64,000 bases of DNA, from the IMG/VR virus record IMGVR_UViG_3300037258_000375, positions 32,001-96,000 of that record, one strand, 5' to 3'. This stretch comes from a virus. The notes beneath the pieces were generated by a model that was given only the letters and a program-made list of their open reading frames with translations, did no database searches and had not been told where the DNA came from. Shown here one piece after another: positions 44,628 to 62,073 of the stretch. The position numbers and the translations under genes are program-made. Every line of letters begins with the position of its first letter. The first letter of the stretch is position 1.

Positions 44628-45244
44628 GAGTCTCCCACACGTTCGGGGCCATCGAGGATGATACTTTCGTGGACAGTGGTTTTAGGGAAGCGTATGTTGA
44701 CTTGATCGACGAACCAGCGGATCATTTCACGGCCCTTGGAGGGCGTGCAGGAATCGATGATGGAGAACAAGAGAAGTAAGTCTTTGTCCTCGACAGCGTC
44801 AAGGCCCTGCATGAGCTTGGCTTCGTCGAGCTTGCCGGTCTGCTGGAACTTGCGGTACACGGCATATCCTAAATCGTGGTACTGGACGATGTTGAGTAAG
44901 TCCGGATCGTCGAGGAACTCAGCAAGGAACGCGCGAGCGAGCGAAGCATGACTCTTGGGATCAAGGATCGCACTGCCATGCTTCGCGACCGCTTTGAAGG
45001 AGTCATGCACGTGAATCAAGATCATCAACTTCCAGCGCTCGTCGTCGCTGACTCGCCACTTCCCATCGATGGCGCGAAGGTTCGCTTCGAGGTCGGCGAT
45101 GTGCGCCTTGATCGTTCCTTCCGCATGGCCACGGCGCGGCTTTCCGTACTCGATGTTTAACTTGTAGCGCGCATCGGCAGTGATTCGCTGAAAGATTTCA
45201 AGATAATTTGCGCCCATGGAGAAAGTATATCCCGAAGCGCGCAA
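44621..45244 (-). CDS. HD-domain protein
   Basis: GH.EG....H, HVHDSFK, H...A..F, HD. Confidence 0.65.
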   Translation of the reverse strand: MRASGYTFSMGANYLEIFQRITADARYKLNIEYGKPRRGHAEGTIKAHIADLEANLRAIDGKWRVSDDERWKLMILIHVHDSFKAVAKHGSAILDPKSHASLARAFLAEFLDDPDLLNIVQYHDLGYAVYRKFQQTGKLDEAKLMQGLDAVEDKDLLLLFSIIDSCTPSKGREMIRWFVDQVNIRFPKTTVHESIILDGPERVGDSW

Positions 45245-45435
45245 TTTTTAAACGGAAGATTCCTCTCCCGCTTGTTGCGGCCAGCCGGACATAGATAGGA
45301 CAGGGTGGTTTGCTAGATGGGTTACTTTTGGGTAGGATGGTGTTACGCAGACATTCGCAGGAACTGGCCAATTAGGAATCACTATATACAAAAGGCTGGC
45401 ATCGCGCCAGCCCTTTGTGGGGATGCCTTGAAAAG

Positions 45436-45933
45436 TTAGGGCGTCGGTGTGGAGAACTCCACCGCGACCGACTGGGTAAGTTGGGTTGGCGGAGGCGGAG
45501 TAACGGCGCTGGTTGTGATCGTAAACGCCTGGGTCCACGTCGAGACAGCGCCATCGGTATCGGTCACGGTGCAAGACGCCGCTCCGCTTACCGCGCCGGA
45601 CGACGCAGCCACGCCGGTACAAGTAGCCGTGACCCCATCGGAGTTCAAGGTGACAGTGGCGGATGGGTCGTTAAACGAATAGCTGACATTCGAGAGGGTG
45701 CCTCCCGAGTTGGTGACGCCATCGGCCTCAAGAGGGACGATGGACGCCTGCGAAGTCTGGCCTACGTTAAAGACCAGGGCATTGTTCGGCATGGGGGATT
45801 CTCCTGTGAAGCGAATTGTGATGCTTTTAGTGAGGGTTCGGGAGCGAAGCTCGTTCTTGATCTCGCGAAGATCGTGCGCGATCTCTTTGAGGAGACCAAC
45901 TATTTCGTGATCGTGGTCATGGAACAAACTCAT
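45436..45933 (-). CDS. hypothetical protein with Ig-like C-terminal region
   Basis: Thr/Ser/Val-rich beta pattern; internal RBS before MPNN. Confidence 0.5.
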   Translation of the reverse strand: MSLFHDHDHEIVGLLKEIAHDLREIKNELRSRTLTKSITIRFTGESPMPNNALVFNVGQTSQASIVPLEADGVTNSGGTLSNVSYSFNDPSATVTLNSDGVTATCTGVAASSGAVSGAASCTVTDTDGAVSTWTQAFTITTSAVTPPPPTQLTQSVAVEFSTPTP

Positions 45934-46266
45934 GGCACCATCCTACACCGGATTGCAATGGGCCTGGATTGTAAATTTTTGACTAGAACCGGGGGCGTTG
46001 ATTGAGGGGCGGGACACATGGCGAGGGAACGATCCGGAGACCCGGATTCAGCGAATGCTTTAGGATGAGCGTCCGGAATCCGGACTTGATCCAGTCGGCT
46101 CGGCGCGCCTCGGCTGTCCGCCGCAGCATGAATCCCTGATCCACCCAGTGAGCGCCGCTCTTCTCTTCGACAAGTAGACGCACCAGGGCGATCCGGCTGA
46201 ATGGAGACTTCTTGACGATGTCAGCGATGGATGCGCGGTAGATGAGCATGGGAAGCATCATGTTTA

Positions 46267-46342
46267 TGGAGCGGGCGGCGGGACTCGAACCCGCGATCAA
46301 CTGCTTGGAAGGCAGAGGTCTTAGCCGCTAGACGACACCCGC
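46267..46342 (-). tRNA. tRNA-Gly(TCC)
   Basis: Cloverleaf, loop CTTCCAA, CCA end. Confidence 0.92.
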
Positions 46343-46863
46343 TAAAGTTTCAACCTTTCGATCTCCTGCTCTACGAACCCGCGCGTGATGGGATGGAGGA
46401 TTATCCGGTCACGTCGTTCTTTGTACCAACCGCTCACATCCCACACGCCGCGAATGGCCCGTCCCGCTCCCGCCCAGTCGGCGATCATCTCGCGAACGTA
46501 TTTGACCGGCATCGGCAGCGCTGCCGTATTGTCATCTGTGTTCGACGCTGGATCGTCAAGCAGAACCCAGTATTGCCAGTGATGCTTGTTCCAGTGAATG
46601 TGATGGAGCCACGCTGTCTGGAACTCCGACGCAACACTTTCTTTCGTCCGACCGCAGTAGCCAGAGCATTGAATCTTCGCCGCGTCCCACTCTGGATAAT
46701 CACCGTAAAAGTAGCGCAGATAGGGGAACCATTCGCACGGCAGCAACTTGCTCCAATCGTGAATCACCAGCCGCCACAGCGAAGCTTTGGTTCTGAGCCC
46801 AGCTTGAAAGACAAACAGCTTGTGGCGGAACAGGTACCGAACGTACTGCAAGTTCTTCGTCAT
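46342..46863 (-). CDS. DUF5662-like HD-fold protein
   Basis: HK..V, HDWSK, AW.HH...N.HH, MP..Y..EMIADW. Confidence 0.75.
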   Translation of the reverse strand: MTKNLQYVRYLFRHKLFVFQAGLRTKASLWRLVIHDWSKLLPCEWFPYLRYFYGDYPEWDAAKIQCSGYCGRTKESVASEFQTAWLHHIHWNKHHWQYWVLLDDPASNTDDNTAALPMPVKYVREMIADWAGAGRAIRGVWDVSGWYKERRDRIILHPITRGFVEQEIERLKL

Positions 46864-47189
46864 GCGAAAATTTTAGCGCCAAATTCCTTAGTTACCGGCG
46901 AAATTTTAGTAACGTTTCTGGAAAACTCGATGTTGCCCTTGCATCCGCTTGCGTTCTTTATTGCGCCATTTCTCGGTCGGCATCTTGTTAAGCCTCAGCG
47001 AGAGGTGTTCCGGATTGAACTTACTTCTGCGGATTTTGCGCAAGTTGAATTCGTGACGAGTGCAGAACGTGAGGCGATTCCCTTTTCCGTCATGTCCAAG
47101 AAGCGAGCAGTCTGGATAAAAACACCCACAATCGCTTGCTTGTTGATTTTCGAAATACGGTCCTTTTTTCATGTCCGCAATTATAGACT

Positions 47190-47266
47190 TGGTGGCGATG
47201 GGAAGCATCGAACTTCCGACCTCACCCTTATCAGGGGTGCGCTCTGTCCAACTGAGCTACATCGCC
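47190..47266 (-). tRNA. tRNA-Ile(GAT)
   Basis: Loop CTGATAA, CCA. Confidence 0.92.
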
Positions 47267-47270
47267 AAAA

Positions 47271-47346
47271 TGGGGCCGGGAACCGGGATCGAACCGGTGA
47301 CCTCTCCCTTACCAAGGGAGTGCTCTGCCAACTGAGCTATCTCGGC
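47271..47346 (-). tRNA. tRNA-Thr(GGT)
   Basis: Loop TTGGTAA, CCA. Confidence 0.92.
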
Positions 47347-47406
47347 AAACGTCAGTGAACTTTCGAAACGTCATACAAACGTCAGTGAAAAGTCATTGAC
47401 AGAAGT

Positions 47407-47482
47407 TGGTGCGGAGTGAGGGACTCGAACCCCCGGCGACCTGCTTGTAGGGCAGACGATCTAGCCGCTGATCTAACTCCGC
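47407..47482 (-). tRNA. tRNA-Val(TAC), C at position 33
   Basis: Loop CCTACAA, CCA. Confidence 0.8.
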
Positions 47483-47487
47483 AAAAC

Positions 47488-47564
47488 TGGTGCGCGTGGA
47501 CGGAATCGAACCGCCGACCTCAAGTTTCGGAAACTTGCGCTCTCTCCAACTGAGCTACACGCGC
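47488..47564 (-). tRNA. tRNA-Arg(CCG)
   Basis: Loop TTCCGAA, CCA. Confidence 0.92.
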
Positions 47565-47884
47565 ATTTGACTTCCAACCCATTAAACATGGAAAACATGT
47601 TCTCTTCCATGCCACTTCGCTGCGATTAAAACATGGCTCGACGTCTCCACATATCTTGCACCGCACGTTAATCAGGAGATTGGATGCATCAGCATTCGCA
47701 AGGTCCACTTCTTCATCCGTCAGTGGATCGCTCAATGACGACGCTCGAATCACAATCTCCTCCGACAAACCCGGTGCCGACCCGAAGATCGGGAAGGAGT
47801 CGAACCTTCCACCTCGTCCACGATTCTCCGCGTCGGAGATTCCCGCCGAGGACCCGACCCTCGGATGTGCGACGTGGTGCAAAC

Positions 47885-47961
47885 TGGTGACCCCGGCGTG
47901 AGTCGAACACGCGACCTGTCGTTTAGGAAACGACCGCTCTATCCGTCTGAGCTACGGGGTC
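47885..47961 (-). tRNA. tRNA-Arg(CCT)
   Basis: Loop TTCCTAA, CCA. Confidence 0.92.
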
Positions 47962-48210
47962 GTGACTTACTGGACACTTATCATTCGGCGCAGGCATCCA
48001 ACAAGTACACTGTGGGTCGATGAATGTCTCCAGCACCCGATCACACTCTGCGTAGTCGCTGCCCACTGCCTGGAACATGCATTTCTGAAGTGCTTCGAAA
48101 GCTCTCACTCTGGACGCAACGCGTGTCTTAATAAACACCGTTTTTCCGTCGCGTTCGTGCGTGCCGCGTTCCAATGCTTCTTCTGCCCAGGTTCTCATGG
48201 CGACCATCAT
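47923..48210 (-). CDS. hypothetical protein; stop codon inside tRNA-Arg(CCT)
   Basis: 95-aa ORF between tRNAs. Confidence 0.45.
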   Translation of the reverse strand: MMVAMRTWAEEALERGTHERDGKTVFIKTRVASRVRAFEALQKCMFQAVGSDYAECDRVLETFIDPQCTCWMPAPNDKCPVSHDPVAQTDRAVVS

Positions 48211-48220
48211 ACATCTAAAC

Positions 48221-48297
48221 TGGTGCTGGCGACTGGAGTCGAACCAGTGGCCTCAAGCTTAGAAGGCAAGTGCTCTATCCGTCTGAGCTACGCCAGC
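48221..48297 (-). tRNA. tRNA-Arg(TCT)
   Basis: Loop CTTCTAA, two U-U mismatches in the anticodon stem, CCA. Confidence 0.85.
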
Positions 48298-48302
48298 AAA
48301 AT

Positions 48303-48377
48303 TGGTGGGACCGGTCAGAGTCGAACTGACATTTCAACGCTTAAAAGGCGTGGCCTCTACCATTGAGTTACGATCCC
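48303..48377 (-). tRNA. tRNA-Lys(TTT)
   Basis: Loop CTTTTAA, CCA. Confidence 0.9.
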
Positions 48378-48778
48378 AATTTCCTTTTCCTTTTCCACTC
48401 GTTGACGTATCCGTTGTGCGCCTTCTTACATAAATCACATCGGCAATACCGATAGGAAGAAATCGTGCCGTGCGTACCTTTTGCCTTGGTGAAGCCCAGG
48501 TCCACGATACTCTTATCCTGGTGGCACGGCCTGCAAAGCAATTGGCATTTCGCAACTTCCTCCCAAAAACGCCGGTCGCTATACGACCATATCCTGGCGA
48601 TATCGGCGATCTTGGATGTTCGGGCTTTATGATCGAACTCAAGTTGTTTTTTACTGCCGCACCTGACGCACTTGCCGCCGAGTTTTCGAATTGCCGCCTT
48701 GCGCCTGCGGTGATATCTTTCCTTGATATACACGCGCATGTACGCATTGTATTCGGCTTTGTTTTTCCCGACTGGCAT
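48368..48778 (-). CDS. HNH homing endonuclease in tRNA array
   Basis: LGGKC..CG....LEFDH, E..KCQLLC..CH, HGT...Y..CRC..C. Confidence 0.85.
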   Translation of the reverse strand: MPVGKNKAEYNAYMRVYIKERYHRRRKAAIRKLGGKCVRCGSKKQLEFDHKARTSKIADIARIWSYSDRRFWEEVAKCQLLCRPCHQDKSIVDLGFTKAKGTHGTISSYRYCRCDLCKKAHNGYVNEWKRKRKLGS

Positions 48779-48803
48779 GGATTAAGCATACCATGCTTCA
48801 ACT

Positions 48804-48879
48804 TGGTGGGCGCGGAGGGCATCGAACCCCCGACCTTATGGTTAAGAGCCATCTGCTCTCCCAACTGAGCTACGCGCCC
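48804..48879 (-). tRNA. tRNA-Lys(CTT)
   Basis: Loop CTCTTAA, CCA. Confidence 0.92.
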
Positions 48880-48883
48880 AAAC

Positions 48884-49075
48884 TTACCGGATCGGACGTA
48901 CCAACGGACCGCCCGTCAACAAACCGAATGCACTTAGAAGCCACAGCACCACTGCGACGAGAACCACGATGTTCAAGATAGTCTTGATCTTCGGGTCCAT
49001 CGGAATGAACTGGTTTATCAACCACAAAAGCAAACCAACGACCACCAAGGTGACGATCAATCCAATCAATGTCAT
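48884..49075 (-). CDS. small two-TM membrane protein (Thivi_2564-like)
   Basis: AGGAGG RBS; LIVTLVVVGLLLWLIN.FIPM..KIK.ILN.VV. Confidence 0.75.
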   Translation of the reverse strand: MTLIGLIVTLVVVGLLLWLINQFIPMDPKIKTILNIVVLVAVVLWLLSAFGLLTGGPLVRPIR

Positions 49076-49106
49076 GAAGTTCCTCCTGCTGATTGGATGC
49101 AACCTT

Positions 49107-49184
49107 TGGTGGGGCTGGTGACGACTCGAACCCACAACCGGAGAATTATGAGTTCTCTGCTCTGCCGACAAATCTTACAGCCCA
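49107..49184 (-). pseudogene. degenerate tRNA(CAT), Ile2-like
   Basis: Loop CTCATAA intact; D-arm and T-stem pairing broken. Confidence 0.6.
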
Positions 49185-49186
49185 TT

Positions 49187-49263
49187 TGGTAGACGTGCGG
49201 AGCATCGAACTCCGAACCTTGCTCTTATAAGGAGCATGCTCTAGCCGATTGAGCTACACGTCT
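49187..49263 (-). tRNA. tRNA-Ile(TAT)
   Basis: Stem TGCTC/GAGCA, loop CTTATAA, CCA. Confidence 0.88.
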
Positions 49264-49274
49264 ATAAAACTTGT

Positions 49275-49434
49275 TTCACAGCGGGATGGCGTTGCGCCAT
49301 CGGAGTAGACAAACTCCGCTGTGAACTTTTTCGTAGTGGCCCACTGCAACGGCTAACCTTTCGGTGAGTTCTGCACGTCTCGGTAGTCTTAGCTTTCCGA
49401 TACCGCCAGTGAATTATGCGCCGCCGCTACGAAA
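49275..49434 (-). ncRNA. two unassigned multibranch structured elements
   Basis: Closing stems TTCACAGC/GCTGTGAA and TTTCGTAGTGGC/GCCGCTACGAAA with internal hairpins. Confidence 0.5.
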
Positions 49435-49436
49435 CT

Positions 49437-49505
49437 TGGTGGCACGCCCGGAGTCGAACCGGATTACGTCCTTATGAGAGACGCTTCCCGCCTTGGGTAC
49501 GTGCC
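49437..49505 (-). tRNA. tRNA-Met(CAT)-like with short D-arm
   Basis: Loop CTCATAA, TTCGA T-loop, CCA; about 69 nt. Confidence 0.65.
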
Positions 49506-49510
49506 AAATC

Positions 49511-49584
49511 TGGCAGGGGATGAACGATTTGAACGCTCAAATTCCGGGTTGGAGCCGGACGGTTTGCATTAAGCCTAATCCCCC
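49511..49584 (-). tRNA. tRNA-Trp(CCA)
   Basis: Loop CTCCAAC, GCCA end. Confidence 0.8.
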
Positions 49585-49920
49585 AAAAGTTATCTTTCGA
49601 TGACAATTAGCGCAGATGAGATCGCATTTTTGAATCTCGGCATAGATACGCGTCTTAGAGATACCCATCACCGCAATTGCATACGACACATCAAAGCATT
49701 TTTCCTCGTCGGGTCGGTGATGGAATTCGAGGCACGCCCAAAATGACTCCTCACAATACAAGCAGTGCTTATCCTTTTTTAAGGACCGTGACCATTCAAC
49801 CCGCTTTGCCTTTTGAGCTATGGCGCGATCAATATAAGGCTGCTTATTGTTCCGGTAATGTTTCCTCCGGTAGCCTCGCAGTTTTTCTTGATTCGCGTCA
49901 CGCCACGCTTTCGTAGACAT
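49537..49920 (-). CDS. HNH homing endonuclease associated with tRNA-Trp
   Basis: C..C......LEFHH, EI.KC.LICANCHR. Confidence 0.85.
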   Translation of the reverse strand: MSTKAWRDANQEKLRGYRRKHYRNNKQPYIDRAIAQKAKRVEWSRSLKKDKHCLYCEESFWACLEFHHRPDEEKCFDVSYAIAVMGISKTRIYAEIQKCDLICANCHRKITFGGLGLMQTVRLQPGI

Positions 49921-49936
49921 ACAAAAAGTATAGCGC

Positions 49937-49975
49937 TTTGGAGACCGGCAGTGTAGCCGCTGCGCTTACTCCCCT
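49937..49975 (-). pseudogene. orphan 5' half of tRNA-Trp
   Basis: AGGGGAG..CCGGT CTCCAAA ends at the anticodon loop just before the HNH gene. Confidence 0.7.
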
Positions 49976-49992
49976 ATGATGTCAAAGACCAA

Positions 49993-50020
49993 CAAAAAAC
50001 CCTCTCCTGAGAGAGGGTCC
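49993..50020 (-). terminator. attenuator terminator of tRNA operon A
   Basis: ACCCTCTC-TCAG-GAGAGGGT followed by a U-run; 5' arm can alternatively pair with leader GAGGGT. Confidence 0.85.
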
Positions 50021-50041
50021 GGATTCCAATCTGTCTACAGA

Positions 50042-50128
50042 TTAGGAACCACAACCCTCACGCACGATTCCCCAAATGACCCGCTTGGTCCCGGTCATGG
50101 TTCTCGCCGATTTGGTTATGGTCAGCAC
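50042..50128 (-). CDS. leader peptide A (MLTITKSARTMTGTKRVIWGIVREGCGS)
   Basis: GTG 7 nt after TTGCAT-N17-TACGCT; codons match downstream tRNAs. Confidence 0.8.
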   Translation of the reverse strand: MLTITKSARTMTGTKRVIWGIVREGCGS

Positions 50129-50307
50129 GAAAATAAGCGTACACCTGTTCGCATTTCGATGCAAGCGGAAAATGGAAATATTCTTGTCAAGCGGAAAATC
50201 GACACAGGCTTATCAGTGACTTGCAGACGAAGAAATGCGAAAACCCCTGTATTTATGCATGTTTGCAAATGCTCGCAATTAAAATTGACGTATCGGAGGA
50301 AACAACT

Positions 50308-50659
50308 ATGGATGGACAGATCAGCAAGTACGACCGGGTACGCGGCGGTCTTCATAACGTCGCGATGTTTACCAGGGCGAGCACAGTCAAAGACCGTGCA
50401 AGCCATCACCGGCAAGTCAGAAACGTTCGTCGTCGAGACAGCGCGGTTCGAAGACGAGGGAGATACCATCTTCATTGAGGCGCTCGATGAGAATGGCCTC
50501 ACACGGCTCGCACTTCCACCAAAGGTTGCTGCGCTCATTGCTTCCCAGCGTGACAGTTTGACGGCGCGCCGCCGCTCGAAGGCCGCACAGCGAATTGCCC
50601 AGGAGCGCAAGGACCGAGGTGAGCTACCAGGGTTCATGCGCAAGAAGAGTACTGAATAA
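50308..50659 (+). pseudogene. hypothetical gene split by a +1 frameshift at ~50388-50392
   Basis: GGAGG-ATG ORF MDGQISKY..STVK continues as TVQAITGK.. in another frame after GTCAAAGACC. Confidence 0.6.
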
Positions 50660-50701
50660 AAGTACCGTTGCCTCCCCCCAAAAGCGCGGTATCATGGGCG
50701 C

Positions 50702-51238
50702 ATGACAAACATTGAAGAAAAGGCGATGGTGTTTGCCACGCGAGCCCACAGAGGGCAGTTGAGAAAGTATACGAACGATCCGTACATTGTGCATCCACTG
50801 ACGGTCGCGGAGATCGTACGCGCCGTTCCCAACCACACAGAAGAGATGATCGCCGCCGCGTGGCTGCACGATGTCAAGGAAGATTGCGGCGTTCAACTGC
50901 CGGAGATCGCGGTAGAGTTCGGCTGGCCGGTCGCCACCATGGTTGATGAACTCAGCGACGTCTCGACCCACTTCGATGGCAACAGGAAGGCACGGAAGGC
51001 CATCGATCTACGACACACAGCGAAGGCGTCTCCGCAGAGCAAGACGATCAAGCTGGCCGACCTCATCGACAACACATCGAGCATCGTGCAATTCGACCCG
51101 AAGTTTGCGAAGGTCTACCTGCCGGAGAAGCTGGCCCTTCTCGAAGTGCTCAAGGATGGCGATTCCGAACTCTGGAAACGAGCCTACAGGTTGGCGCGGA
51201 GAAACGTCTCCCACACCGCGATGTTCTCCAGCCGATAA
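50702..51238 (+). CDS. HD-domain small alarmone hydrolase (SpoT/MESH1-like)
   Basis: AH.GQ.RK...PYIVHP, AAWLHDV.ED, IKLADLIDN. Confidence 0.85.
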   Translation: MTNIEEKAMVFATRAHRGQLRKYTNDPYIVHPLTVAEIVRAVPNHTEEMIAAAWLHDVKEDCGVQLPEIAVEFGWPVATMVDELSDVSTHFDGNRKARKAIDLRHTAKASPQSKTIKLADLIDNTSSIVQFDPKFAKVYLPEKLALLEVLKDGDSELWKRAYRLARRNVSHTAMFSSR

Positions 51239-51495
51239 CGCCGCCTCTGCCTGGAGCCTGGGACGAACCCCACGGCGCGCACGTCCAGGCCGTAAGCTCG
51301 GCATCGAGTGACCGAGTCGGCTCCCTGGAAGTCACCGAGAATCTCTGCGATCTGCGTGGACACCACCGCATCGTTGCTTCTGAAAAGCTCGATGAGCACA
51401 GGAAGAGAACTCTCCACGGACTGCTTCATGCTTCCCTCAAAAAAAGGGCTGCGGGGATTGGCCCCGCAGCGAAGTTGATCGGTGTTGTTGTAATA

Positions 51496-51786
51496 CTAGA
51501 TCGACTCGCCAAGGTCTGCCAACTCCTTGTCGATCTGCGCGCGCTTCTCCTGAGCAGTCTTAAGGCTCTCGCGCTCTGACTTCAACTGACGAATACGCGT
51601 CGCACGACGGTCTTCCATACGTGAAGAAATCTCACGGGAAATGGTATTCAGGTTATCGGAAACGTACTCCGGAACCGTGACCTTCTGTGCCTCGAACTCG
51701 CTACGAAGCTGCTTACCGAATGCTGACAGTGCGACAAGCTCATCGATGTCAGACTCTACATTGAAGTTCTTGAAATCCTGAAGCAT
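51496..51786 (-). CDS. helical protein downstream of Ro60
   Basis: AAAGGAGG RBS; frame also open from 51903. Confidence 0.65.
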   Translation of the reverse strand: MLQDFKNFNVESDIDELVALSAFGKQLRSEFEAQKVTVPEYVSDNLNTISREISSRMEDRRATRIRQLKSERESLKTAQEKRAQIDKELADLGESI

Positions 51787-51899
51787 GGTCTTCCTCCTTT
51801 CCGCGATCCTCTGCTTCGAGAGATCGACAAAGATATTCTTCTTCGGAACCCTATTGCGGCTCGGGTTCTCATGCTTCTTGTTGTGGTAGTTCACTGCCA

Positions 51900-53408
51900 T
51901 CACACACCTACCAGTTCCGTATCCTTCAGCACATCGCTGAGCGACTTCAACGGCGTCGCCATGATCTCGTCAACGAGGCTGTACTGGTTCGACCGCATCG
52001 TCTGCACAAGGTTCGGGATCGCATAATAGTCCGTCTTGCCGTCGCGAAGATCGAACGTCTGCATCTCGATACCCAGTGCATTCATGCGGTAGCTCAAGTT
52101 ATCTGTACCGCCAGCGCAGTGGTAGAAGTAGACCGGCACGTCCTTATCCACGAACGTCGCATACTTCTTATACACATCCGGGAAGTGAGGTGCCCTATTC
52201 TCCTCGCCGTCCGACACGATGGCAATGCCGTCAACCGCGATCTTCTCCGCCAGCATCCGATTCAGACCGCAACCGATGGACGTCGCCGAGCCAGTCTTGA
52301 TGTGCTTCGTCGCGGCGATGACCTGATCCAGCGAGCAACCGGTGACATCTACAGTCATCGGAGTTTCGTCGAAGAACACGAGATACACCTTGCCCTTCAC
52401 GAACTGCGCCAGAGACGCCGCCACATGCTTACCGAACTCGATGCTCTTCTCCATGCTCGGGCTGCGATCCACCAGCACAAGCCAATCGCCAGCCGGACCG
52501 CCAGCCTTCGCGATCTGCTTCGCCTGCAAGCCGCGCAGCTTCTCCTTCAGGCCCTCATCCGTGACGCCCTCGACTGCCTGGGTCGTCTTGAGCGTGTTCT
52601 GCGTAGACGTTGCCGCCTTCTGAAGTGCCTGCTCAAGCGCACCACGCAAAGCTGGGTTGGTCTTGACGCCGAGCTTCTCCAACATCTTCATGCTGGTCGC
52701 TAACTCGGTTGCCGTCATTTGGCCGATGAGGGCCAACACAAGGTCCGGCTCCTTCGCCTTCGCACCAAGAGCACCCGCAGCGATCAAGAACGGCACCTTG
52801 AACCTGATGATTGCGCCCGCCGCCTCAACCGGAGACATGTCCTTGAGGTGTGCCACTGCTTCGAAGACAGAGCCCTTCGGCAAAGCCAGCTTGGTCACAA
52901 CCACGGTACCGTCGATCTTCTCCTTCCACTGGCCGGAGATGACCGCAGCGACGCGGCGGTTACCAGGACCGGTACGTGAGAGCGCGTACAGCGCCTTGAG
53001 CACGCTGCGGTGCTGGATCGCGATGTGATCCCAGTTCCGTGACTCTTCCTTCTGCCGGAGATAGGCGCGAATCACGCGATCCATCTGCGACATCTTGCCC
53101 TTCGGACGAATCTCACGCACGAAATCGAAGGCGCGGCGCAACTCACGCGGGCCGAGCGCAGCCATGTGCGCGACGCTGTTGTCGAGTAATTCGAGATCAC
53201 TCTCGAACGCGAGGCCGAGAACCGGCAACGCGACCTTGCTGTCACGAATCTGACCATGCCGCGCGTTCCAGGCGATCAAATGCTGGAAGAACTCGCCATC
53301 CTGCGCAATGGCCTGCTTGCCAACCTCGACATACTCGCCGAGCTTGCCGTGAGGAGACTTACTCAACTCGCTAAAAACCTTGGAGCGCGTTAAACCCTGC
53401 TTCTCCAT
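51900..53408 (-). CDS. Ro60/TROVE-like RNA-binding protein with C-terminal vWA domain
   Basis: About 500 aa; helical N-terminal region then LVLVDRSPSM, T..GC, IVSDGEEN; adjacent tRNA-mimic RNA array. Confidence 0.75.
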   Translation of the reverse strand: MEKQGLTRSKVFSELSKSPHGKLGEYVEVGKQAIAQDGEFFQHLIAWNARHGQIRDSKVALPVLGLAFESDLELLDNSVAHMAALGPRELRRAFDFVREIRPKGKMSQMDRVIRAYLRQKEESRNWDHIAIQHRSVLKALYALSRTGPGNRRVAAVISGQWKEKIDGTVVVTKLALPKGSVFEAVAHLKDMSPVEAAGAIIRFKVPFLIAAGALGAKAKEPDLVLALIGQMTATELATSMKMLEKLGVKTNPALRGALEQALQKAATSTQNTLKTTQAVEGVTDEGLKEKLRGLQAKQIAKAGGPAGDWLVLVDRSPSMEKSIEFGKHVAASLAQFVKGKVYLVFFDETPMTVDVTGCSLDQVIAATKHIKTGSATSIGCGLNRMLAEKIAVDGIAIVSDGEENRAPHFPDVYKKYATFVDKDVPVYFYHCAGGTDNLSYRMNALGIEMQTFDLRDGKTDYYAIPNLVQTMRSNQYSLVDEIMATPLKSLSDVLKDTELVGV

Positions 53409-53437
53409 AGTGTCACCGTCTCTTTCAGTTGTGGTAG

Positions 53438-53989
53438 TTATGGGAGTGTACGAGTTCTGAGATATTCGAGAAGGTCGATATAGCTGATCTTCTTCAACTG
53501 GCACCACGCCACCGCCGACATACCACCTTTGTCTTTGTTGCATTTTCGGCACGCAGACAGGTAGTTACTCGGATCATTCAAGCCGCCCATCTCCAACGGA
53601 TTGAAGTGGTCAATGGTCAATTGAACCTTGCCCATCGGCAGACTACAGTACACACATTTACAGCCGTCAGCCATCCATACTTTCTGCTGGACGGCACCGG
53701 AAATGTCGTAGCGTAGCTTCCGATGGAAAATCTTCTCCATCGAGCCTTGGACAAGAATCTCAGGATCGTCCGATCTCTGGAGCCAGTCCGACCATTCTTC
53801 GGTGGTAAGAATTCGAACTGACGCTACAGTAGAAAGACCACGCGCGTTCGGCAATAAGAACACGGCTTGCGCGCCTTCGCCGCCGATCACGACACCTTCA
53901 ATTTTGAGGATGGAGCCTACGTCGCCGTGGAGAGCGGGACGATGGCGCAATTCTAGCTGATAAAATCTTGAGTCACTCGCCATCGTCAT
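53438..53989 (-). CDS. HNH nuclease with N-terminal extension
   Basis: C.YC, LTIDHF.P...GG.....NYLSAC..CN..KG. Confidence 0.8.
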   Translation of the reverse strand: MTMASDSRFYQLELRHRPALHGDVGSILKIEGVVIGGEGAQAVFLLPNARGLSTVASVRILTTEEWSDWLQRSDDPEILVQGSMEKIFHRKLRYDISGAVQQKVWMADGCKCVYCSLPMGKVQLTIDHFNPLEMGGLNDPSNYLSACRKCNKDKGGMSAVAWCQLKKISYIDLLEYLRTRTLP

Positions 53990-54007
53990 CCCCCCGGATC
54001 GAACTTA

Positions 54008-54141
54008 CGTGCTGTAGTCGATATGGCTTAGATTTTGCAGAGCCTTTCGGCCCGCGCCCCCCGTATATGAAGCCGGTATGGTGGTGGAAGGGGCCGGGGT
54101 TTCCCCCGGAACAAGATCATGTACCCATGTCAGTCAGCACG
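54008..54141 (-). ncRNA. Y-RNA-like unit G
   Basis: GCTGACTG..GGTACATG ... CGACTACAGC terminal stem. Confidence 0.7.
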
Positions 54142-54356
54142 AACTTAATGCAGCGGCCAAGGAGGCAATTCGTAGCGGTAAAACCTGCTGTTGAGCTTCA
54201 GAGAGTCACTCGGCTCCGCTACACCCTTCTATTCCAGCCTCGGTAGGTCACCCCGCCGCTGCAAAACAAACTTGATCGCGGTACCTTCTATGGCTCTCGA
54301 AGAGTACCTGTTTGGGATCGCATCCTTCTAAAGCCTTCCCTCGGGCACCGCGAACT

Positions 54357-54470
54357 TGGCTGGGGAACTCGGTTACGAGCCGAGAGCCTTCTTGCGAAGG
54401 CGCAAAGACATGTATCCAAGTCAGTCGGCAGTAACGCCGTAGTCGATCTGGAACTTCTTCAGTTCCCCAG
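54357..54470 (-). ncRNA. Y-RNA-like unit F (permuted; acceptor stem plus CCA)
   Basis: TGGGGAA/TTCCCCA-GCCA ends; internal CGACTACGGC-loop-GCCGACTG..TACATG. Confidence 0.7.
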
Positions 54471-54547
54471 TAAAACTTGCTGGCGGGAGTTGCCTCGGCA
54501 CCTTCCACTCCCGGATCGCCTCGCGGCTGTCGAGCCAGCTAAATTAT

Positions 54548-54664
54548 TGGGGGCGGGTCTTGGATTCGAACCAAGATGCTCAGTTGATGAGACTTCGCTT
54601 TGCCATGTACCCGAATCTGTCAGCGTTTCCGCTGTAGTCGCTCCGGATTGTTTCATAACCCGCC
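54548..54664 (-). ncRNA. Y-RNA-like unit E (permuted; acceptor stem, T-arm, CCA)
   Basis: GGCGGGT/ACCCGCC-CCCA ends; CGACTACAGCG-GAAA-CGCTGACAG..GGTACATG; GGTTCGAATCC. Confidence 0.75.
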
Positions 54665-54673
54665 CCAACTTAC

Positions 54674-54796
54674 TGACCTGTAGTCGAAGTGCTATTCCCT
54701 TTCGGGAACGGAGTTGGAATTGAACCAACAACCTTCTGCTTAAGAGGCAGATGCTCTACCAAGTGAGCTATCCATGTAAGCACTTCAGTCAGGCCA
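54674..54796 (-). ncRNA. Y-RNA-like unit D carrying tRNA-Lys(CTT)-like D, anticodon and T arms
   Basis: CCTGACTG..CTTACATG, TAGCTCA..GGTAGAGC, CTCTTAA, GGTTCAATTCC, CGACTACAGG. Confidence 0.78.
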
Positions 54797-54809
54797 TTCT
54801 CAAACTTAC

Positions 54810-54946
54810 TGGGCTGTAGTCGATCTGCTTGTGTTGCTAAGCGCTCTACCACTGAGCTAATCCCGCATAAAATTATGGGGCGGGATGAAGGATTCGAACC
54901 TCCGACCTCTGCCTTGGAAGGGCATGTAAGCAAATCAGTCAGCCCA
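54810..54946 (-). ncRNA. Y-RNA-like unit C carrying a circularly permuted tRNA-Gly(TCC)-like domain
   Basis: GCTGACTG..CTTACATG, CTTCCAA, T-arm, acceptor 3' strand+CCA, loop, acceptor 5' strand, D-arm, CGACTACAGC. Confidence 0.8.
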
Positions 54947-54953
54947 TACTTAC

Positions 54954-55029
54954 TGGCTTGTAGTCGTTCCGCATTGCCTTTCGGCGTGTTCGTGTTCAAA
55001 GCGATCATGTATGCGAAACAGTCAAGCCA
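54954..55029 (-). ncRNA. Y-RNA-like unit B (minimal)
   Basis: GCTTGACTG..ATACATG ... CGACTACAAGC. Confidence 0.7.
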
Positions 55030-55042
55030 TACTCAAAATTTC

Positions 55043-55159
55043 TCCGCTGTAGTCGTCTGGCAACCCCTTGCGGGGACACGGTCGGATTTGAACCGACTGC
55101 TTTTCATCCAAATTGAAATGTGGGACCAACCCACACATGTAAGCCAAACAGTCAGCGGA
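55043..55159 (-). ncRNA. Y-RNA-like unit A with T-arm
   Basis: GCTGACTG..CTTACATG, GGTTCAAATCC, CGACTACAGC; promoter TTGCGC-N17-TAAGGT upstream. Confidence 0.72.
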
Positions 55160-55196
55160 AACTCAAACTCAACTTCACAACCTTACCACAACCCTG

Positions 55197-55862
55197 TCAT
55201 GCGCGCAATTTCTTTTTCTGCGCCGATCTATGGAGGGGCCGGAGGGAGTCGAACCCACGACCTGTTGATTCGTAGTCAACCGCTCTATCCGTCTGAGCTA
55301 CGGCCCCGTGGTCGGGACTGTGGGATTCGAACCCACGACCACCTGTTCCCAAAACAGGAGCGCTACCTGACCGCGCCCAGTCCCGATACTCTAAGTCTTG
55401 GTCGGGGAGAGGGGATTCGAACCCCTGCATAGCCGAGCTACCTGCCCTTTGGTACGCGCCCAAGGATTCGAACCTCGGACCTCCGTCAGACTGCAACGGC
55501 GCTCTGACCACTGAGCTAGGCGCGTATGAAACATTCTTCTCACTCCACAGTTTATAGTTCTGCAAGACCGCGCGCTGTTCCTCATCGAGGGGCACGGTCA
55601 CGACCGCTGTGAGACCAAGGTCATTGTCCGGCTCATAGAAAGCGGACGCATCGATGTGATGCAGCTTGAGCTTGGCAATGACTCTTTCGAGAGCTTTTTT
55701 GTTGGGGACGCCGATCAACACGAGGGACGGAACAAGATCATCCACACTCTGTGAAAGTGTGTAGGCCATCTCAAATGTCGCATGATTGGTCTGAATGATC
55801 TGCTGCGCCAAGGTCAGGTCTTGGCGGACGAACAAGAAGTAGTATGGATTCCCCTAATGCAT
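55197..55862 (-). CDS. peptidyl-tRNA hydrolase (Pth2-like), TAG at codon 3, frame runs through tRNAs
   Basis: YYFLFVRQDL..Q...Q..HA, F.EPD...LTA, L..YKLW; ATG CAT TAG in frame. Confidence 0.7.
55231..55307 (-). tRNA. tRNA-Arg(ACG)
   Basis: Loop CTACGAA, CCA. Confidence 0.92.
55309..55385 (-). tRNA. tRNA-Pro(TGG)
   Basis: Loop TTTGGGA, CCA. Confidence 0.92.
55399..55447 (-). pseudogene. tRNA-Pro-like remnant lacking the anticodon arm
   Basis: T-arm and CCCCGACCA end present; about 49 nt. Confidence 0.55.
55450..55525 (-). ncRNA. tRNA-like RNA with non-canonical anticodon loop
   Basis: Intact acceptor, D and T arms and CCA; loop GCAGTCT lacks U33/R37. Confidence 0.7.
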
Positions 55863-56157
55863 GTGAGTATCTTTCACCTGTTCTAAAATTTTGTCAAGGG
55901 GAATTTTCTAAACACGCCCTCATGAATCACATCTAGCTGGTAGCAAGTGATACCTATTTGTCTCGCTTTCACTTTCATGATGAGGGTTCGGCTGTTGGAA
56001 TCCCATTCTCCGACATCGATGCCGATGACGTACTTACTTGGAGGCGGGAGCGTGACCATGCCCGCACTCACCGGTTCCAATGCCGCGACAGCAGCCAAGG
56101 GCGCGAGAGCTTTCGCGCCAGCAAGACCAGCTATCGATCTGAGAAAGCCGCGCCGAT

Positions 56158-56397
56158 TCACGACGACATCCCAATTCCTACTCTCACATCGGGCAGTTTG
56201 CGCAAATTCTCAGCAGCATTCACGGCCTGCGCAGCGTCCTCGTAGCGGAAGACAAGATCACGGGTATAAGTGCCCGAGAGCATACAGCCGGAGTCACACT
56301 TCACTGGGCCATCAGGCACGTAACCGGCAGCTACGAAGATCGCTTCATCGGTCGCACTCTTGATGCCGCCGTCGTACTCGACAATTACGTTGTGCAT
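56158..56397 (-). CDS. hypothetical protein
   Basis: GGGAG RBS; DSGC..TRDL.F. Confidence 0.5.
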   Translation of the reverse strand: MHNVIVEYDGGIKSATDEAIFVAAGYVPDGPVKCDSGCMLSGTYTRDLVFRYEDAAQAVNAAENLRKLPDVRVGIGMSS

Positions 56398-56415
56398 GAA
56401 GACTCCCGGAGAGAT

Positions 56416-56490
56416 TGGTAGAGCGTGCGGGACTCGAACCCGCGTCTTAGCCTTGAAAGAGCCATGTCCTAGCCGCTAGACGAACACTCC
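56416..56490 (-). tRNA. tRNA-Glu(TTC)
   Basis: Loop CTTTCAA, CCA. Confidence 0.9.
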
Positions 56491-56696
56491 ACAACTTACT
56501 CTTCTTTGTTTAAGGCATCAAGCGCCTTCGACGGAGCCTGCTTGATCCTCAAACGGAATCTGCACCATGCCTCGAATGCGCTACCGGCCATCAGCATAAT
56601 AAACTCGGCACCGATGCAGATGAACATCAAATCAATGAGGCCGTTAAAGAGCCATTTCTGGAAATAAGATACGTCCATGCTTCACCCCCGTGAACT

Positions 56697-56771
56697 TGGT
56701 AGGGAGTACGGGAATCGAACCCGTGTGGCAAGATTGAGAATCTTGCATCCTAGCCGCTAGATGAACTCCCC
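56697..56771 (-). tRNA. tRNA-Glu(CTC)
   Basis: Loop TTCTCAA, CCA. Confidence 0.9.
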
Positions 56772-56994
56772 AAAAATCAGGCAGAACCAGTATATCCCGA
56801 ACCTGCACTTGTAATCACAACGGAAGCAATCCGGCCATTCGCATTGAGGGTTACCTCGGTCCCAACCCGGCGAGCCTCCCAGGCACGAGCCGATCTCAGA
56901 AAGATATTCCGGATCAGAGCCGCTTTCCGCCGCCTCTGAATCCGCGCCAAGACCTTCTTGCGCTTGTGCTTCTTTTTGCGATTCTCGGGCATAA

Positions 56995-57348
56995 AAATCG
57001 AGGCCGGGTATTGCTTTGCATGGAACCCGGCGAACCACGGATAGCTGTTTTTAGGCAGCCATCGGCAACGCATTATCCTCAGCGTTTATTGGTCTGCATC
57101 CCTTTTGCGGGCGGTAGCAGGGTTCCCGGCACGAAGCTGGAGTTCATTGATCTCGTCGAAACCTTGACGCCCCCACCAAGAAACACTGATTGAGAAATGT
57201 CTAGCCTGTCCACGAAGCTTTTTGACCAGCTTCGCCCTCGTAGCGCCGGAATCGAACCGACGACGCAATTAGTGCTTCTTGGTGGAGGCGGCGGGAGTCG
57301 AACCCGCGTCCGAAATCAACTTCCTTCAGTGTTGACGTGCGTAACTCA
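56995..57348 (-). ncRNA. ssrA: circularly permuted (two-piece) tmRNA; tag (A)AEDNALPMAA
   Basis: Acceptor piece ..GGACGCGGGTTCGACTCCCGCCGCCTCCACCA (to 57280) precedes coding piece GGGGGCG..TTTCGAC (from 57174); G3:U70; tag ORF 57083-57051. Confidence 0.85.
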
Positions 57349-57373
57349 AATACTGCTCTCCTTTTCTTGAAAA

Positions 57374-57916
57374 TCATTGGACTTGAATATACACCGTCTT
57401 GTCTTCTGACGGGACGATTAAAAAGCTCCGGTCTGGTAAATCCGGAATCCCATGGATCAATCGCTGTCGTAGGGATTCGTGATGTACCCCATAATTCTTA
57501 GCTACCGACCGCATGGACTCACCAGACCTGATCCGCTCTCTCGCGATAGCAAGCTGGTCTTCTGAAAATCTCCTGGTCACCTCGCGTCTTCTGCGCCCAC
57601 GCGCCGGGTCATACGAGGTAATCGCTTTATCTATCTGCGATTGGCGACGAATCGACATCAATGGCCTGAGCAACTGCATCATCTGCAATATCCTCAAGCC
57701 GCCAATGTTGACAACCCAGGAATCTTTCCACTGAGGCTTACGCTTTTTCTTTCGAACTTTGTGATACTTCGCGTTTAACAACCTTGCGATTCGCGCGATC
57801 ACATCTTCATCTGTCATATTGCATGATATGCGTGGGCAATTTGGCTTAGAAGGAGGGCTACATAGAAATGACCCCTCCCCTTCAAGAATGCCAGCAAGCC
57901 AATGAAGATCATGCAT
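57374..57916 (-). CDS. LAGLIDADG endonuclease with C-terminal HTH
   Basis: WLAGILEGEGSF, MTDEDVI, PLMS.RR..QI, SMRSVAKNYGV. Confidence 0.82.
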   Translation of the reverse strand: MHDLHWLAGILEGEGSFLCSPPSKPNCPRISCNMTDEDVIARIARLLNAKYHKVRKKKRKPQWKDSWVVNIGGLRILQMMQLLRPLMSIRRQSQIDKAITSYDPARGRRRREVTRRFSEDQLAIARERIRSGESMRSVAKNYGVHHESLRQRLIHGIPDLPDRSFLIVPSEDKTVYIQVQ

Positions 57917-57924
57917 CAAAATTA

Positions 57925-58000
57925 TGGCGCGACCGACCGGGGTTGAACCGGCGACCTCTTGATCGACAATCAAGCGCTTTTCCATCTAAGCTACGGTCGC
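57925..58000 (-). tRNA. tRNA-Asp(GTC)
   Basis: Loop TTGTCGA, GCCA. Confidence 0.9.
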
Positions 58001-58097
58001 GTGTGCCCAAATAGGTTCAAGCTTTCGCCGCTCCAATATGCGTTCGCGGAAACGCCTAAGCGCTCCAGACCCTACTAGCATTACCCTTGGGCTTAAT

Positions 58098-58174
58098 TGG
58101 TTGCGGGCGCACGCTCCGACCGTGCCGATGTGGTGGTTATGAGCCACCCGAGACGCCTTTTCTCCATGCCCGCG
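58098..58174 (-). tRNA. initiator-type tRNA-fMet(CAT)
   Basis: C1:A72 mismatch, loop CTCATAA, atypical T-loop; promoter TTGCGC-N17-TACATT. Confidence 0.75.
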
Positions 58175-58210
58175 TTTCATAATGTACCACGGAATGGGAA
58201 TGCGCGCAAA

Positions 58211-61671: not shown

Positions 61672-61705
61672 AAACTAAAAACCCCCCGAATCATCGGAGG
61701 GCTGG
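61672..61705 (-). terminator. attenuator terminator of tRNA operon B
   Basis: GCCCTCCGA-TGAT-TCGGGGGGT followed by a U-run; CCAGCCCTC can alternatively pair with leader GAGGGTTGG. Confidence 0.82.
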
Positions 61706-61728
61706 AAACTTTCGACCGTGCTCAGTCG

Positions 61729-61791
61729 CTAGTCAACCCAACCCTCAGAAGAGGAGAGATACAGGCACGAACTGAGTGACAAGGTCTTCAC
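61729..61791 (-). CDS. leader peptide B (MKTLSLSSCLYLSSSEGWVD)
   Basis: GTG 7 nt after TTGACA-N17-GAGCAT; twelve consecutive Leu/Ser/Cys/Tyr codons. Confidence 0.82.
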   Translation of the reverse strand: MKTLSLSSCLYLSSSEGWVD

Positions 61792-61812
61792 GAAAATGAT
61801 GCTCTCACAAAT

Positions 61813-62073
61813 CTATTTTGCTGTCAACGCCAATTTTCTGCGCTCCAGCCATTGCTCAAGAGTCAAGCCGCCTGGATGGTCCGGATCGTAATGCATCCAT
61901 ACAGTCCATCCTCCTTTGGCTTTTTCGGGAAATGGGTGGCACGGGCATTCCGGCGAGAGTATATGCAGACATGACGGAACACGCTGTCCATCTATCTCGA
62001 TCAAAGGAACCACGTGATTACATCCGGTGCCGTCGTCATCCTCACTGCGAACAACGCCCCAATGTTGCATCAC
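61813..62073 (-). CDS. hypothetical protein
   Basis: HVVP..H....CPCHP. Confidence 0.55.
   Translation of the reverse strand: MMQHWGVVRSEDDDGTGCNHVVPLIEIDGQRVPSCLHILSPECPCHPFPEKAKGGWTVWMHYDPDHPGGLTLEQWLERRKLALTAK

Follow-up and report, generated by a model that had tools for sequence, protein, structure and literature searches.

How might a soil phage control a block of tRNA genes that stands behind a promoter, a short open reading frame (ORF), and an intrinsic terminator? The question is raised by a locus within a 64,000-nucleotide stretch of viral DNA (hereafter the window), part of a 105-kb IMG/VR virus record; the 29 tRNA genes and a permuted tmRNA form three clusters, all of them on the minus strand. 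The locus is a divergent intergenic region, from which a tRNA unit extends leftward and a small gene and an HD-domain gene extend rightward from ~50308. The answer for which there is a good case, in the absence of any expression, end-mapping, or ribosome data, is that the ORF and terminator constitute a ribosome-mediated attenuator of the trp/his type that exerts feedback on tRNA supply; most likely, the phage makes the tRNAs of the cluster only when ribosomes run short of them. The promoter, the leader ORF, and the genes that follow are these:

50159..50164, minus strand: -35 hexamer TTGCAT, preceded by a T-rich stretch (read directly)
50136..50141, minus strand: -10 hexamer TACGCT (TAnnnT type), with a 17-nt spacer from the -35 hexamer and 7 nt to the start codon (read directly)
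50042..50128, minus strand: leader ORF with a GTG start, 27 sense codons, and a TAA stop at 50044-50042, 28 codons in total (read directly; homologues)
49933..49975, minus strand: fragment resembling the 5' half of tRNA-Trp, up to the CCA anticodon loop, between the terminator and the HNH gene (by eye)
49537..49920, minus strand: HNH endonuclease ORF, inserted between the attenuator and the first tRNA gene (PHROG HNH families, E = 1.5e-18)
46267..49584, minus strand: regulated unit of 12 tRNA genes and small intervening ORFs (ARAGORN, Rfam tRNA model)

The preliminary description, made without database searches, had read the promoter hexamers, their 17-nt spacer, the 7-nt gap, and the codon string of the GTG-initiated ORF exactly as they stand on the minus strand. 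The promoter is sigma-70-like with a weak -10 box, and it is because only 3 of the 6 positions of this box match the consensus that a generic promoter scan does not return it. The T-rich stretch, the -35 hexamer, the 17-nt spacer, and a TAnnnT -10 box also precede the homologous leaders of five relatives (L064, L080, L087, L090, and L065). As the start codon follows the -10 box by 7 nt, a leaderless mRNA is predicted, with transcription inferred to start at or beside the GTG. How efficiently a GTG would serve as start codon on such a predicted leaderless mRNA depends on the host, which for the window is unknown.

The tRNAs behind this leader (leader B, or the Trp-type leader) are Trp, Met, Ile(TAT), Lys(CTT), Lys(TTT), Arg(TCT), Arg(CCT), Arg(CCG), Val(TAC), Thr(GGT), Ile(GAT), and Gly(TCC). 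ARAGORN returned all 12 with the anticodons that had been listed earlier, and the Rfam tRNA model recovers 11 of the 12 genes, missing a 69-nt tRNA-Met at 49437-49505. Codons for the cluster's eight amino acids make up 21 of the 27 sense codons of the leader ORF. The claim that nearly every tRNA has a cognate codon in the leader, with AGG missing, was borne out under strict wobble decoding: 11 of the 12 tRNAs are matched, and the sole exception is the one that requires AGG. Cognate codons occupy 15 of the first 18 sense positions, and the non-cognate ones gather toward the end, in the six final codons that make up the antiterminator arm described below.

In the window, the gap between the terminator and tRNA-Trp measures 415 nt and is filled by the tRNA-Trp-like fragment and the HNH endonuclease gene; in relatives without the HNH insert, tRNA-Trp begins 21-42 nt past the terminator. 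From comparison with the tRNA-Trp that directly follows the terminator in L064 and L087, the fragment is likely, if not proven, to be a remnant of a homing-endonuclease insertion. A group I intron carrying the HNH gene within tRNA-Trp found no support, as the intron mode of ARAGORN joins no fragment to the downstream tRNA. Two longer ORFs that overlap the leader were rejected as genes: one of 227 aa on the plus strand (49976-50659) has no Pfam match, and the antisense frame that it occupies is not open in relatives, all three antisense frames being closed in L087 and L109; the other, of 173 aa on the minus strand (50122-50643), likewise has no Pfam match.

How far does the codon match of leader B exceed chance within the window? 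The 21/27 codons for the eight amino acids compare with a background of 0.41 (binomial P = 1e-4) and the 17/27 strict-wobble codon matches with 0.25 (P = 3.6e-5), and coverage of at least 11 of the 12 tRNA species has P = 4e-4 against real-gene windows and P = 1.1e-3 against all stop-free six-frame windows. A genome-wide composition control was also run, in which every ORF of 12-45 codons in all six frames, 1481 small ORFs, was compared with all three clusters, and there random frames reach compositional scores of 1e-5. Taken by itself, the leader's composition departs only moderately from expectation (P about 1e-3 to 1e-4) and is no outlier among random small ORFs. Since random frames reach 1e-5, the significance of the leader rests not on composition but on position, structure, and conservation in relatives, all of which are strong.

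The RNA structure of the leader consists of four elements:

50114..50123, minus strand: region 1, the 5' arm of the 1:2 helix, in codons 2-5, pairing with region 2 at 50047-50056 (minimum-energy fold)
50077..50098, minus strand: inner hairpin within the ORF, Met-Thr...Val-Ile core (folding, RNAalifold)
50013..50059, minus strand: antiterminator hairpin (2:3), RNA nt 70-116, -26.9 kcal/mol against -15.3 kcal/mol for the terminator; 0/500 shuffles as good
49994..50020, minus strand: intrinsic terminator with a GC-rich stem of 9-10 bp (50020-49997), a 4-nt loop, and six T (sequence, fold)

The leader RNA thus displays the complete 1:2, 2:3, and 3:4 layout of classical attenuators. Folded as a whole, it reaches -56.7 kcal/mol (z = -4.2; 0/200 shuffles as good) and consists of a long helix between codons 2-5 and the last codons, a small hairpin, and the terminator, which is made of regions 3 and 4. 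Pairing of the 5' end of the ORF with region 2 is found in the minimum-energy folds of the window and most relatives and, given this 1:2 helix, an untranslated RNA should terminate. When region 1 and the 3' arm of the terminator are left out of the fold, the antiterminator appears, its 5' arm in the last six codons and its 3' arm covering 7 nt of the terminator 5' arm. The long hairpin that had been drawn between the 3' end of the ORF and the terminator arm is this one, at 50059-50013, and it does sequester the arm; the earlier model was right about antiterminator and terminator but had omitted the upstream 1:2 helix. The inner hairpin is a candidate RNA polymerase pause hairpin, a role that is inferred. 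It is kept in four relatives despite different sequence and peptide order, and two of its RNAalifold pairs (38-57 and 39-56 of alignment A3) are each changed on both sides in 4 sequences.

The switch was modelled by equilibrium folding with the ribosome footprint masked. The terminator has a probability of 0.99 when the ribosome sits on the stop or at the last codons. This probability drops to 0.05-0.64 for stalls at codons 13-19 with the RNA upstream occupied, and to 0.25-0.94 for stalls at codons 6-12, where region 1 is masked and region 2 uncovered, AGA giving the lowest value (0.25) and ATG leaving the outcome nearly unchanged (0.94). Codons 2-19 are the stretch in which, according to the model, a stalled ribosome would leave the antiterminator arm free.

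Relatives of the locus were fetched through a neighbouring Ro60-like gene (TROVE/vWA type, 51900-53552), yielding three loci from viruses and 48 from metagenomes, most of them of peat or soil origin. Isolated phages, searched by nucleotide sequence with the 3 kb surrounding the leader, returned no relative, and a protein search with the Ro60-like neighbour returned only one distant uncultured huge phage. Homologues of leader B stand directly before Trp-led tRNA clusters at 12 loci besides the window, on soil or peat phage contigs (L087, L071 with identical copies in L069 and L070, L065, L079, L076, L109, L073, L064, L080, L081, L090, and L061). All 12 begin with ATG, the window with GTG, and the start codon lies either 6-7 nt past the -10 box or ~7 nt past an AAGGA-type Shine-Dalgarno site. 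Every indel within the ORF is a multiple of 3. The antiterminator 5' arm is placed at +1 to +7 or at -15 to -9 with respect to the stop codon in every relative; in the window and L087, the ORF extends five codons more, through this arm. The ORF, its frame, the stop position, and the terminator are kept across the 13 related loci, and in 13/13 only the leader frame is open up to the antiterminator. A more distant relative, L083, has the same type of promoter directly before tRNA-Gly and no leader, what had looked like one being the end of a 184-aa gene.

The manner in which the B leaders vary suggests what is being maintained. Second codon positions are as variable as third positions, and yet the variable columns stay 80-100% within the eight-amino-acid set, with nearly all swaps taking place among Thr, Ile, Arg, Lys, Met, Val, and Gly; residues of the set make up 71-91% of each leader versus 41% in phage genes. 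Met, Thr, Lys, Arg, Val, Ile, Trp, and Gly each occur once in an eight-residue core, and in four relatives the order of this core is rearranged while the amino-acid set and the internal hairpin are retained. Judged from these patterns, selection acts on codon identity and not on the peptide, which is not conserved in the way of a protein. The preference extends to isoacceptors: Thr is encoded by ACC or ACT in 43/45 cases in leaders versus 47% in phage genes, Arg by AGA, AGG, or CGG in 30/36 versus 38%, Gly by GGA or GGG in 24/30 versus 41%, and Ile by ATA in 13/31 versus 14%. By this comparison, leader codon choice tracks the anticodons present in the clusters. Most relatives have at least one cognate codon for every tRNA species of the cluster. 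Not every gain or loss of a tRNA is tracked: the B leader of G001 retains Trp, Met, Ile, and Thr codons before a cluster without those tRNAs, and in L065 and L090 the leaders of a further family, the C family introduced below, retain Phe codons without a tRNA-Phe.

The window carries a second leader of this kind before another of its tRNA clusters:

61675..61835, minus strand: sister attenuator (leader A), before the Leu x6/Cys/Ser/Tyr cluster (folding, architecture, homologues)

Leader A has its ORF at 61791-61729, in which 12 of 19 codons specify Leu, Ser, Cys, or Tyr and 8/8 tRNA species are covered, with a P value similar to that of leader B; cross-matches of the two leaders to each other's cluster are low. 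The two share, as the preliminary description had pointed out, a 9-mer at the start codon and an 8-mer in the antiterminator core, which recur in leader A at 61797-61789 and 61746-61739. Homologues of leader A were found in L061, L065, L070, L081, and the cultured phage Tunturi_5. A gapped DNA pattern built from the two shared motifs was set aside, as its matches in 56 viral contigs were about the number expected by chance and none lay directly before a tRNA cluster; a DNA pattern from leader A matched only G001 and one near-identical contig. Before the Met/Asp/tmRNA/Glu cluster, a possible third leader at 58917-58770 has a promoter, a 9-codon ORF, and a terminator, and neither a conserved homologue nor a clear antiterminator was found for it.

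A scan for the architecture itself, namely a terminator with an ORF ending just upstream and a tRNA downstream, identified two further families of leaders in the same genomes. The A family, to which leader A of the window belongs, comprises leaders rich in Leu, Ser, Cys, and Tyr before Leu/Cys/Ser/Tyr clusters, and the C family comprises leaders rich in Phe, His, Asn, Ala, Pro, Thr, Gln, Gly, and Arg before Asn/Gln/Gly/Thr/His/Ala/Phe/Pro/Arg clusters. Promoter spacing of the leaderless kind, with 6-7 nt from the -10 box to the start, occurs in all three families and in several genomes. When leaders are pooled by family and scored by the fraction of residues that fall in each amino-acid set, A leaders reach 0.63 for their own set and 0.24 and 0.20 for the other two, B leaders 0.81 for their own and 0.06 and 0.49 for the others, and C leaders 0.82 for their own and 0.05 and 0.43 for the others.

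A tRNA-based search led to a cultured example, the jumbo phage Tunturi_5 (PP885688.1), whose host is Tunturiibacter psychrotolerans (Acidobacteriota). The paper describing Tunturi_5 reports 43 tRNA genes and nothing on their control (PMC11924767). This phage carries all three leader types, with leader terminators at about 231.2 kb, 239.2 kb, and 251.6-251.8 kb of its record. Its Trp-type cluster has an extra Asp and two Glu tRNAs and is without Thr, and its Trp-type leader, annotated as the 49-aa hypothetical protein gp308, differs from the other B leaders in the same two respects: Asp or Glu codons number 8/48 in the gp308 leader versus 4/268 in the others (Fisher 5e-5), and Thr codons 2/48 versus 45/268 (P = 0.026). 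For each of the 15 different tRNA species in the cluster, the gp308 leader has a cognate codon (P = 0.004); the antiterminator arm of this leader is located 12-18 nt ahead of the stop codon, with 0/300 shuffles as good. The argument of the preliminary description that a second leader with different, matching codons speaks against coincidence is supported by three families that each fit their own cluster type and by the gain of Asp and Glu in Tunturi_5.

The pairings of the switch are retained to differing degrees. Whole-leader alignment with MAFFT and RNAalifold gave a poor consensus because the terminator arms were misaligned, and it was replaced by per-sequence folding and an alignment fitted to a covariance model. 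Across relatives, the terminator stems differ in sequence and keep their pairing, with 6/7 pairs changing on both sides and 0/500 shuffles reaching the score; the alignment used, having been fitted to a covariance model, is biased toward structure. For the antiterminator, no covariation was detected in the main subgroup, where 80% of cells pair and shuffles do equally well, and the result is uninformative because the helix sequence is conserved within this subgroup. The same antiterminator pairing is reached by different sequences in the window, L087, and Tunturi_5, and likewise in the A and C leaders of the window and metagenomic loci. An antiterminator is present in all 13 B-type leaders, that of Tunturi_5 included, and one that overlaps the terminator in 5/5 A-type and 3/3 C-type leaders from the window and metagenomic loci; a simple fold did not find it in the A-type and C-type leaders of Tunturi_5 itself. 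Shuffle controls give the antiterminator strong support in the window, L087, and Tunturi_5 and modest support in the other leaders. In L079 and L061, equilibrium folding with a stalled ribosome gives no switch, the terminator still being favoured, so that the case for these two leans on the order of folding during transcription.

A leader-peptide attenuator whose codons match its own operon, as had been proposed at the outset, is thus supported by the RNA layout, the 13 conserved loci, and the codon choice, with function unproven. How it would work can be outlined, the transcription start, translation of the ORF, stalling, and direction of the switch all being inferred. A leaderless mRNA would begin at or beside the GTG, and a ribosome would translate the 28-codon leader as RNA polymerase advances. 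With cognate aminoacyl-tRNAs plentiful, the ribosome would arrive at the last codons or the stop and cover the antiterminator 5' arm, the terminator would form, and the tRNA genes would not be transcribed. Were any of the ~12 sampled tRNA species scarce, the ribosome would stall in codons 2-19, occupying region 1 and leaving region 2 free; region 2 would then pair with the terminator 5' arm, and polymerase would read through into the HNH gene and the 12 tRNA genes. In the absence of translation, regions 1 and 2 would pair and the terminator would form. The outcome would be negative feedback on the phage tRNA supply, exerted cluster by cluster through each cluster's own leader. Sequence does not tell which trigger would act in nature: simple homeostasis in the course of infection, a poor fit to the codon usage of the host, or tRNA depletion through host defences.

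Other explanations must be measured against what is observed: the elements in the sequence, structures that exclude one another, an ORF conserved in relatives, and the codon-anticodon match. The attenuator might sense general translation capacity, in the form of ribosome availability or coupling, rather than particular tRNAs, with the codon match secondary, in which case host shut-off, antibiotics, or starvation would open all clusters. An attenuator of this architecture would indeed answer any stall, and general translational stress is known to switch on a tRNA array in a bacterium (PMC8421152). This reading is nevertheless considered improbable, as it leaves unexplained why one genome has three codon sets that each fit the adjacent cluster, why codons are chosen at the level of isoacceptors, and why Asp and Glu codons were gained jointly with Asp and Glu tRNAs.

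Two further explanations give up attenuation by codon sampling altogether, and each is held to be very improbable. The ORF might encode a functional micropeptide, or be an ordinary short gene with a normal terminator, the tRNAs being transcribed from elsewhere or by leaky read-through and the match reflecting local codon adaptation. That the ORF is conserved, that it is annotated as gp308 in Tunturi_5, and that leader peptides can act in trans, as does peTrpL, would all agree with this, but what is conserved is membership of the amino-acid set and not the order of residues, the stop codon always abuts or follows the arm that pairs with the terminator, three unrelated peptides have one layout in common, and the 21-42 nt that separate terminator and tRNA in relatives hold no other promoter-like site. 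Alternatively, the locus could specify a structured RNA that is not translated (a gene for a small RNA, a signal for processing, or an attenuator that binds a protein or a tRNA) in which the open frame is incidental. The strength of the structure (z = -4.2) fits such an RNA, parts of the conserved core serve also as hairpin arms, and the terminated product could be a small RNA, as with rnTrpL. An incidental frame does not account, however, for a start at a fixed distance from a -10 box or Shine-Dalgarno site, for in-frame indels and a leader frame that alone is open to the antiterminator at all 13 loci, or for substitutions that remain within the amino-acid set, and there is no match to a T-box or other Rfam family at E <= 1.

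The proposed attenuator of tRNA genes resembles the trp, his, leu, thr, ilvGMEDA, ilvBN, and pheA attenuators of Enterobacteria in having a promoter-proximal short ORF rich in regulatory codons, mutually exclusive 1:2, 2:3, and 3:4 helices, and a terminator before the first regulated gene, with stalling leading to read-through; like the thr and ilv leaders, it is multivalent. It differs from these amino-acid-operon attenuators in controlling tRNA genes and not enzymes, such that the loop would close on tRNA supply, and in sampling ~12 isoacceptors for eight amino acids, mostly once or a few times each, in place of a run of one codon. Its codon choice is also anticodon-specific, its mRNA is predicted to be leaderless, and the element is viral; there is no sequence similarity to the amino-acid-operon leaders and no match to an Rfam leader family. 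In the pheST operon of E. coli, a leader-peptide attenuator answers to charged tRNA and governs part of the translation apparatus. That attenuator senses one amino acid, controls a synthetase, and is cellular, whereas the leader described here precedes tRNA genes and is phage-borne. T-box riboswitches, too, sense tRNA status and set an antiterminator/terminator switch before translation-related genes, but they bind uncharged tRNA themselves, by means of a specifier codon and a conserved T-box motif and without a ribosome, whereas the phage leader has an ORF, inferred to be translated, with many codons, no T-box motif, and no Rfam match. A cmscan of 45000-63000 at E <= 1 returned only tRNA, tmRNA, and weak unrelated matches, none of them at 49990-50170 or 61675-61835, and gave no covariance-model match to the T-box or to the His, Leu, Thr, and Trp leader families.

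A functional parallel exists in the trn operon of Anabaena sp. PCC 7120, a horizontally mobile block of supernumerary tRNA genes, which is normally silent and is turned on when translation is impaired (PMC8421152). This array is controlled at its promoter, via direct repeats thought to bind a repressor, and no leader ORF or terminator has been described for it (PMC8421152). The 2021 study of this inducible tRNA array termed the mechanisms of differential tRNA gene regulation "largely unknown" (PMC8421152). A search of the full-text literature found no description of leader-peptide control of tRNA genes, phage or cellular, and with neither a paper nor an Rfam family to be found, such control appears to be undescribed.

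The regulation of individual tRNA genes remains largely open, and why and when phages express their tRNA sets is debated. The leader would offer a testable mechanism, in which decoding speed at chosen codons is coupled to transcription of the matching tRNA genes, separately for each cluster. Attenuation would be extended from metabolites to tRNA supply, from cells to viruses, and from runs of a single codon to the sampling of many, and such leaders could act as compact natural reporters of isoacceptor availability. As all three leader types are present in a cultured phage with its host, Tunturi_5 and T. psychrotolerans, experiments are possible now. A bolder version of the attenuator, held only tentatively and with the balance somewhat against it, would make these leaders modular tRNA-shortage alarms of soil Acidobacteriota phages, each sampling exactly the isoacceptors of its own cluster, with the tRNAs transcribed only when the host has too few of them or is losing them, as might happen through anticodon-nuclease defences or phage-induced decay of host tRNAs. 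If true, no earlier case would exist, in any system, of tRNA genes under the control of a leader peptide, and the leader would be a natural sensor with a codon-by-codon readout of isoacceptor levels.

The Leu x6/Cys/Ser/Tyr tRNA cluster of the window is preceded by a probable sister of the predicted attenuator that stands before the Trp-led tRNA cluster (here the main attenuator).

61675-61835, minus strand: probable sister attenuator, before the Leu x6/Cys/Ser/Tyr tRNA cluster

Its promoter and ORF are set at leaderless spacing, and the ORF, which starts with GTG, comprises 20 codons, twelve of which specify Leu, Ser, Cys or Tyr. None of 300 shuffles yielded an antiterminator as good, and tRNA-Leu begins 12 nt downstream of the terminator. 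Homologues are present in the related metagenomic or viral loci L061, L065, L070 and L081, as well as in the cultured Acidobacteriota phage Tunturi_5.

Within the main attenuator, and 3' of it, lie the following features.

50077-50098, minus strand: 6-bp hairpin, coinciding with the most conserved part of the main leader
49980-49986, minus strand: conserved heptamer with a perfect -35-like hexamer
49933-49975, minus strand: fragment resembling a tRNA-Trp 5' half, extending to the CCA anticodon loop, 3' of the attenuator terminator
49537-49920, minus strand: HNH endonuclease gene, between this fragment and the complete tRNA-Trp

The hairpin is retained, by way of two-sided changes, in relatives whose leader peptide is rearranged. 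A stretch rich in U and G comes after it, which makes the hairpin a candidate signal for transcriptional pausing. The heptamer recurs at the equivalent position in L087, L076, L080, L081, L090, L064, L061 and L112 (the Tunturi_5 locus), about 10 nt 3' of the attenuator T-run; tRNA-Trp lies only 2-25 nt further on, a spacing too short for the heptamer to be the promoter of this tRNA. It could instead be a processing or binding site. Together, the tRNA-Trp-like fragment and the HNH gene look like a homing-endonuclease insertion with partial duplication of its target, and ARAGORN in intron mode did not join the fragment to the downstream tRNA-Trp.

Other features of the window bear on leaders or on RNA.

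58770-58917, minus strand: promoter-like site, 9-codon ORF and terminator
56960-57391, minus strand: permuted (two-piece) tmRNA gene (Rfam tmRNA_permuted, 101 bits)
54838-54911 and 55281-55341, minus strand: sub-threshold Rfam YrlA (Y RNA-like) matches, near the Ro60-like gene
51900-53552, minus strand: Ro60-like protein gene, TROVE/vWA type (PHROG 'RNA-binding protein')

The first of these may be a third leader: its promoter-like site is strong (10/12 positions matched, TG present), its ORF is rich in Asp, Asn and Thr codons, and downstream are a 164-aa ORF and then the Met/Asp/tmRNA/Glu cluster. Neither a conserved homologue nor a clear antiterminator was found for it. The tmRNA gene lies within the third tRNA cluster of the window and is also present in relatives, with differing tag peptides; the phage-encoded Ro60-like protein is conserved across all relatives.

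In L083, a more distant relative (Ro60-like protein 55% identical), a promoter of the main-leader type at 1000-1080 (plus strand) stands immediately 5' of tRNA-Gly and a cluster of 31 tRNAs; neither an attenuator nor a leader ORF separates promoter and tRNA-Gly. At L069 9100 and L070 12869 (plus strand), the place of tRNA-Lys(TTT) in the Trp-led cluster is occupied by a possible ochre suppressor, a tRNA whose TTA anticodon would decode the TAA stop codon; the leader ORF of both loci ends in TAG. Finally, the cultured phage Tunturi_5 encodes an annotated hypothetical protein at the corresponding place.

L112 18794-18943 (PP885688.1 251573-251722): gp308

The tRNA genes of the adjoining cluster are unannotated in PP885688.1, and gp308 most probably corresponds to the leader ORF of an attenuator before this Trp/Asp/Met/Lys/Val/Arg/Glu/Ile/Gly tRNA cluster.
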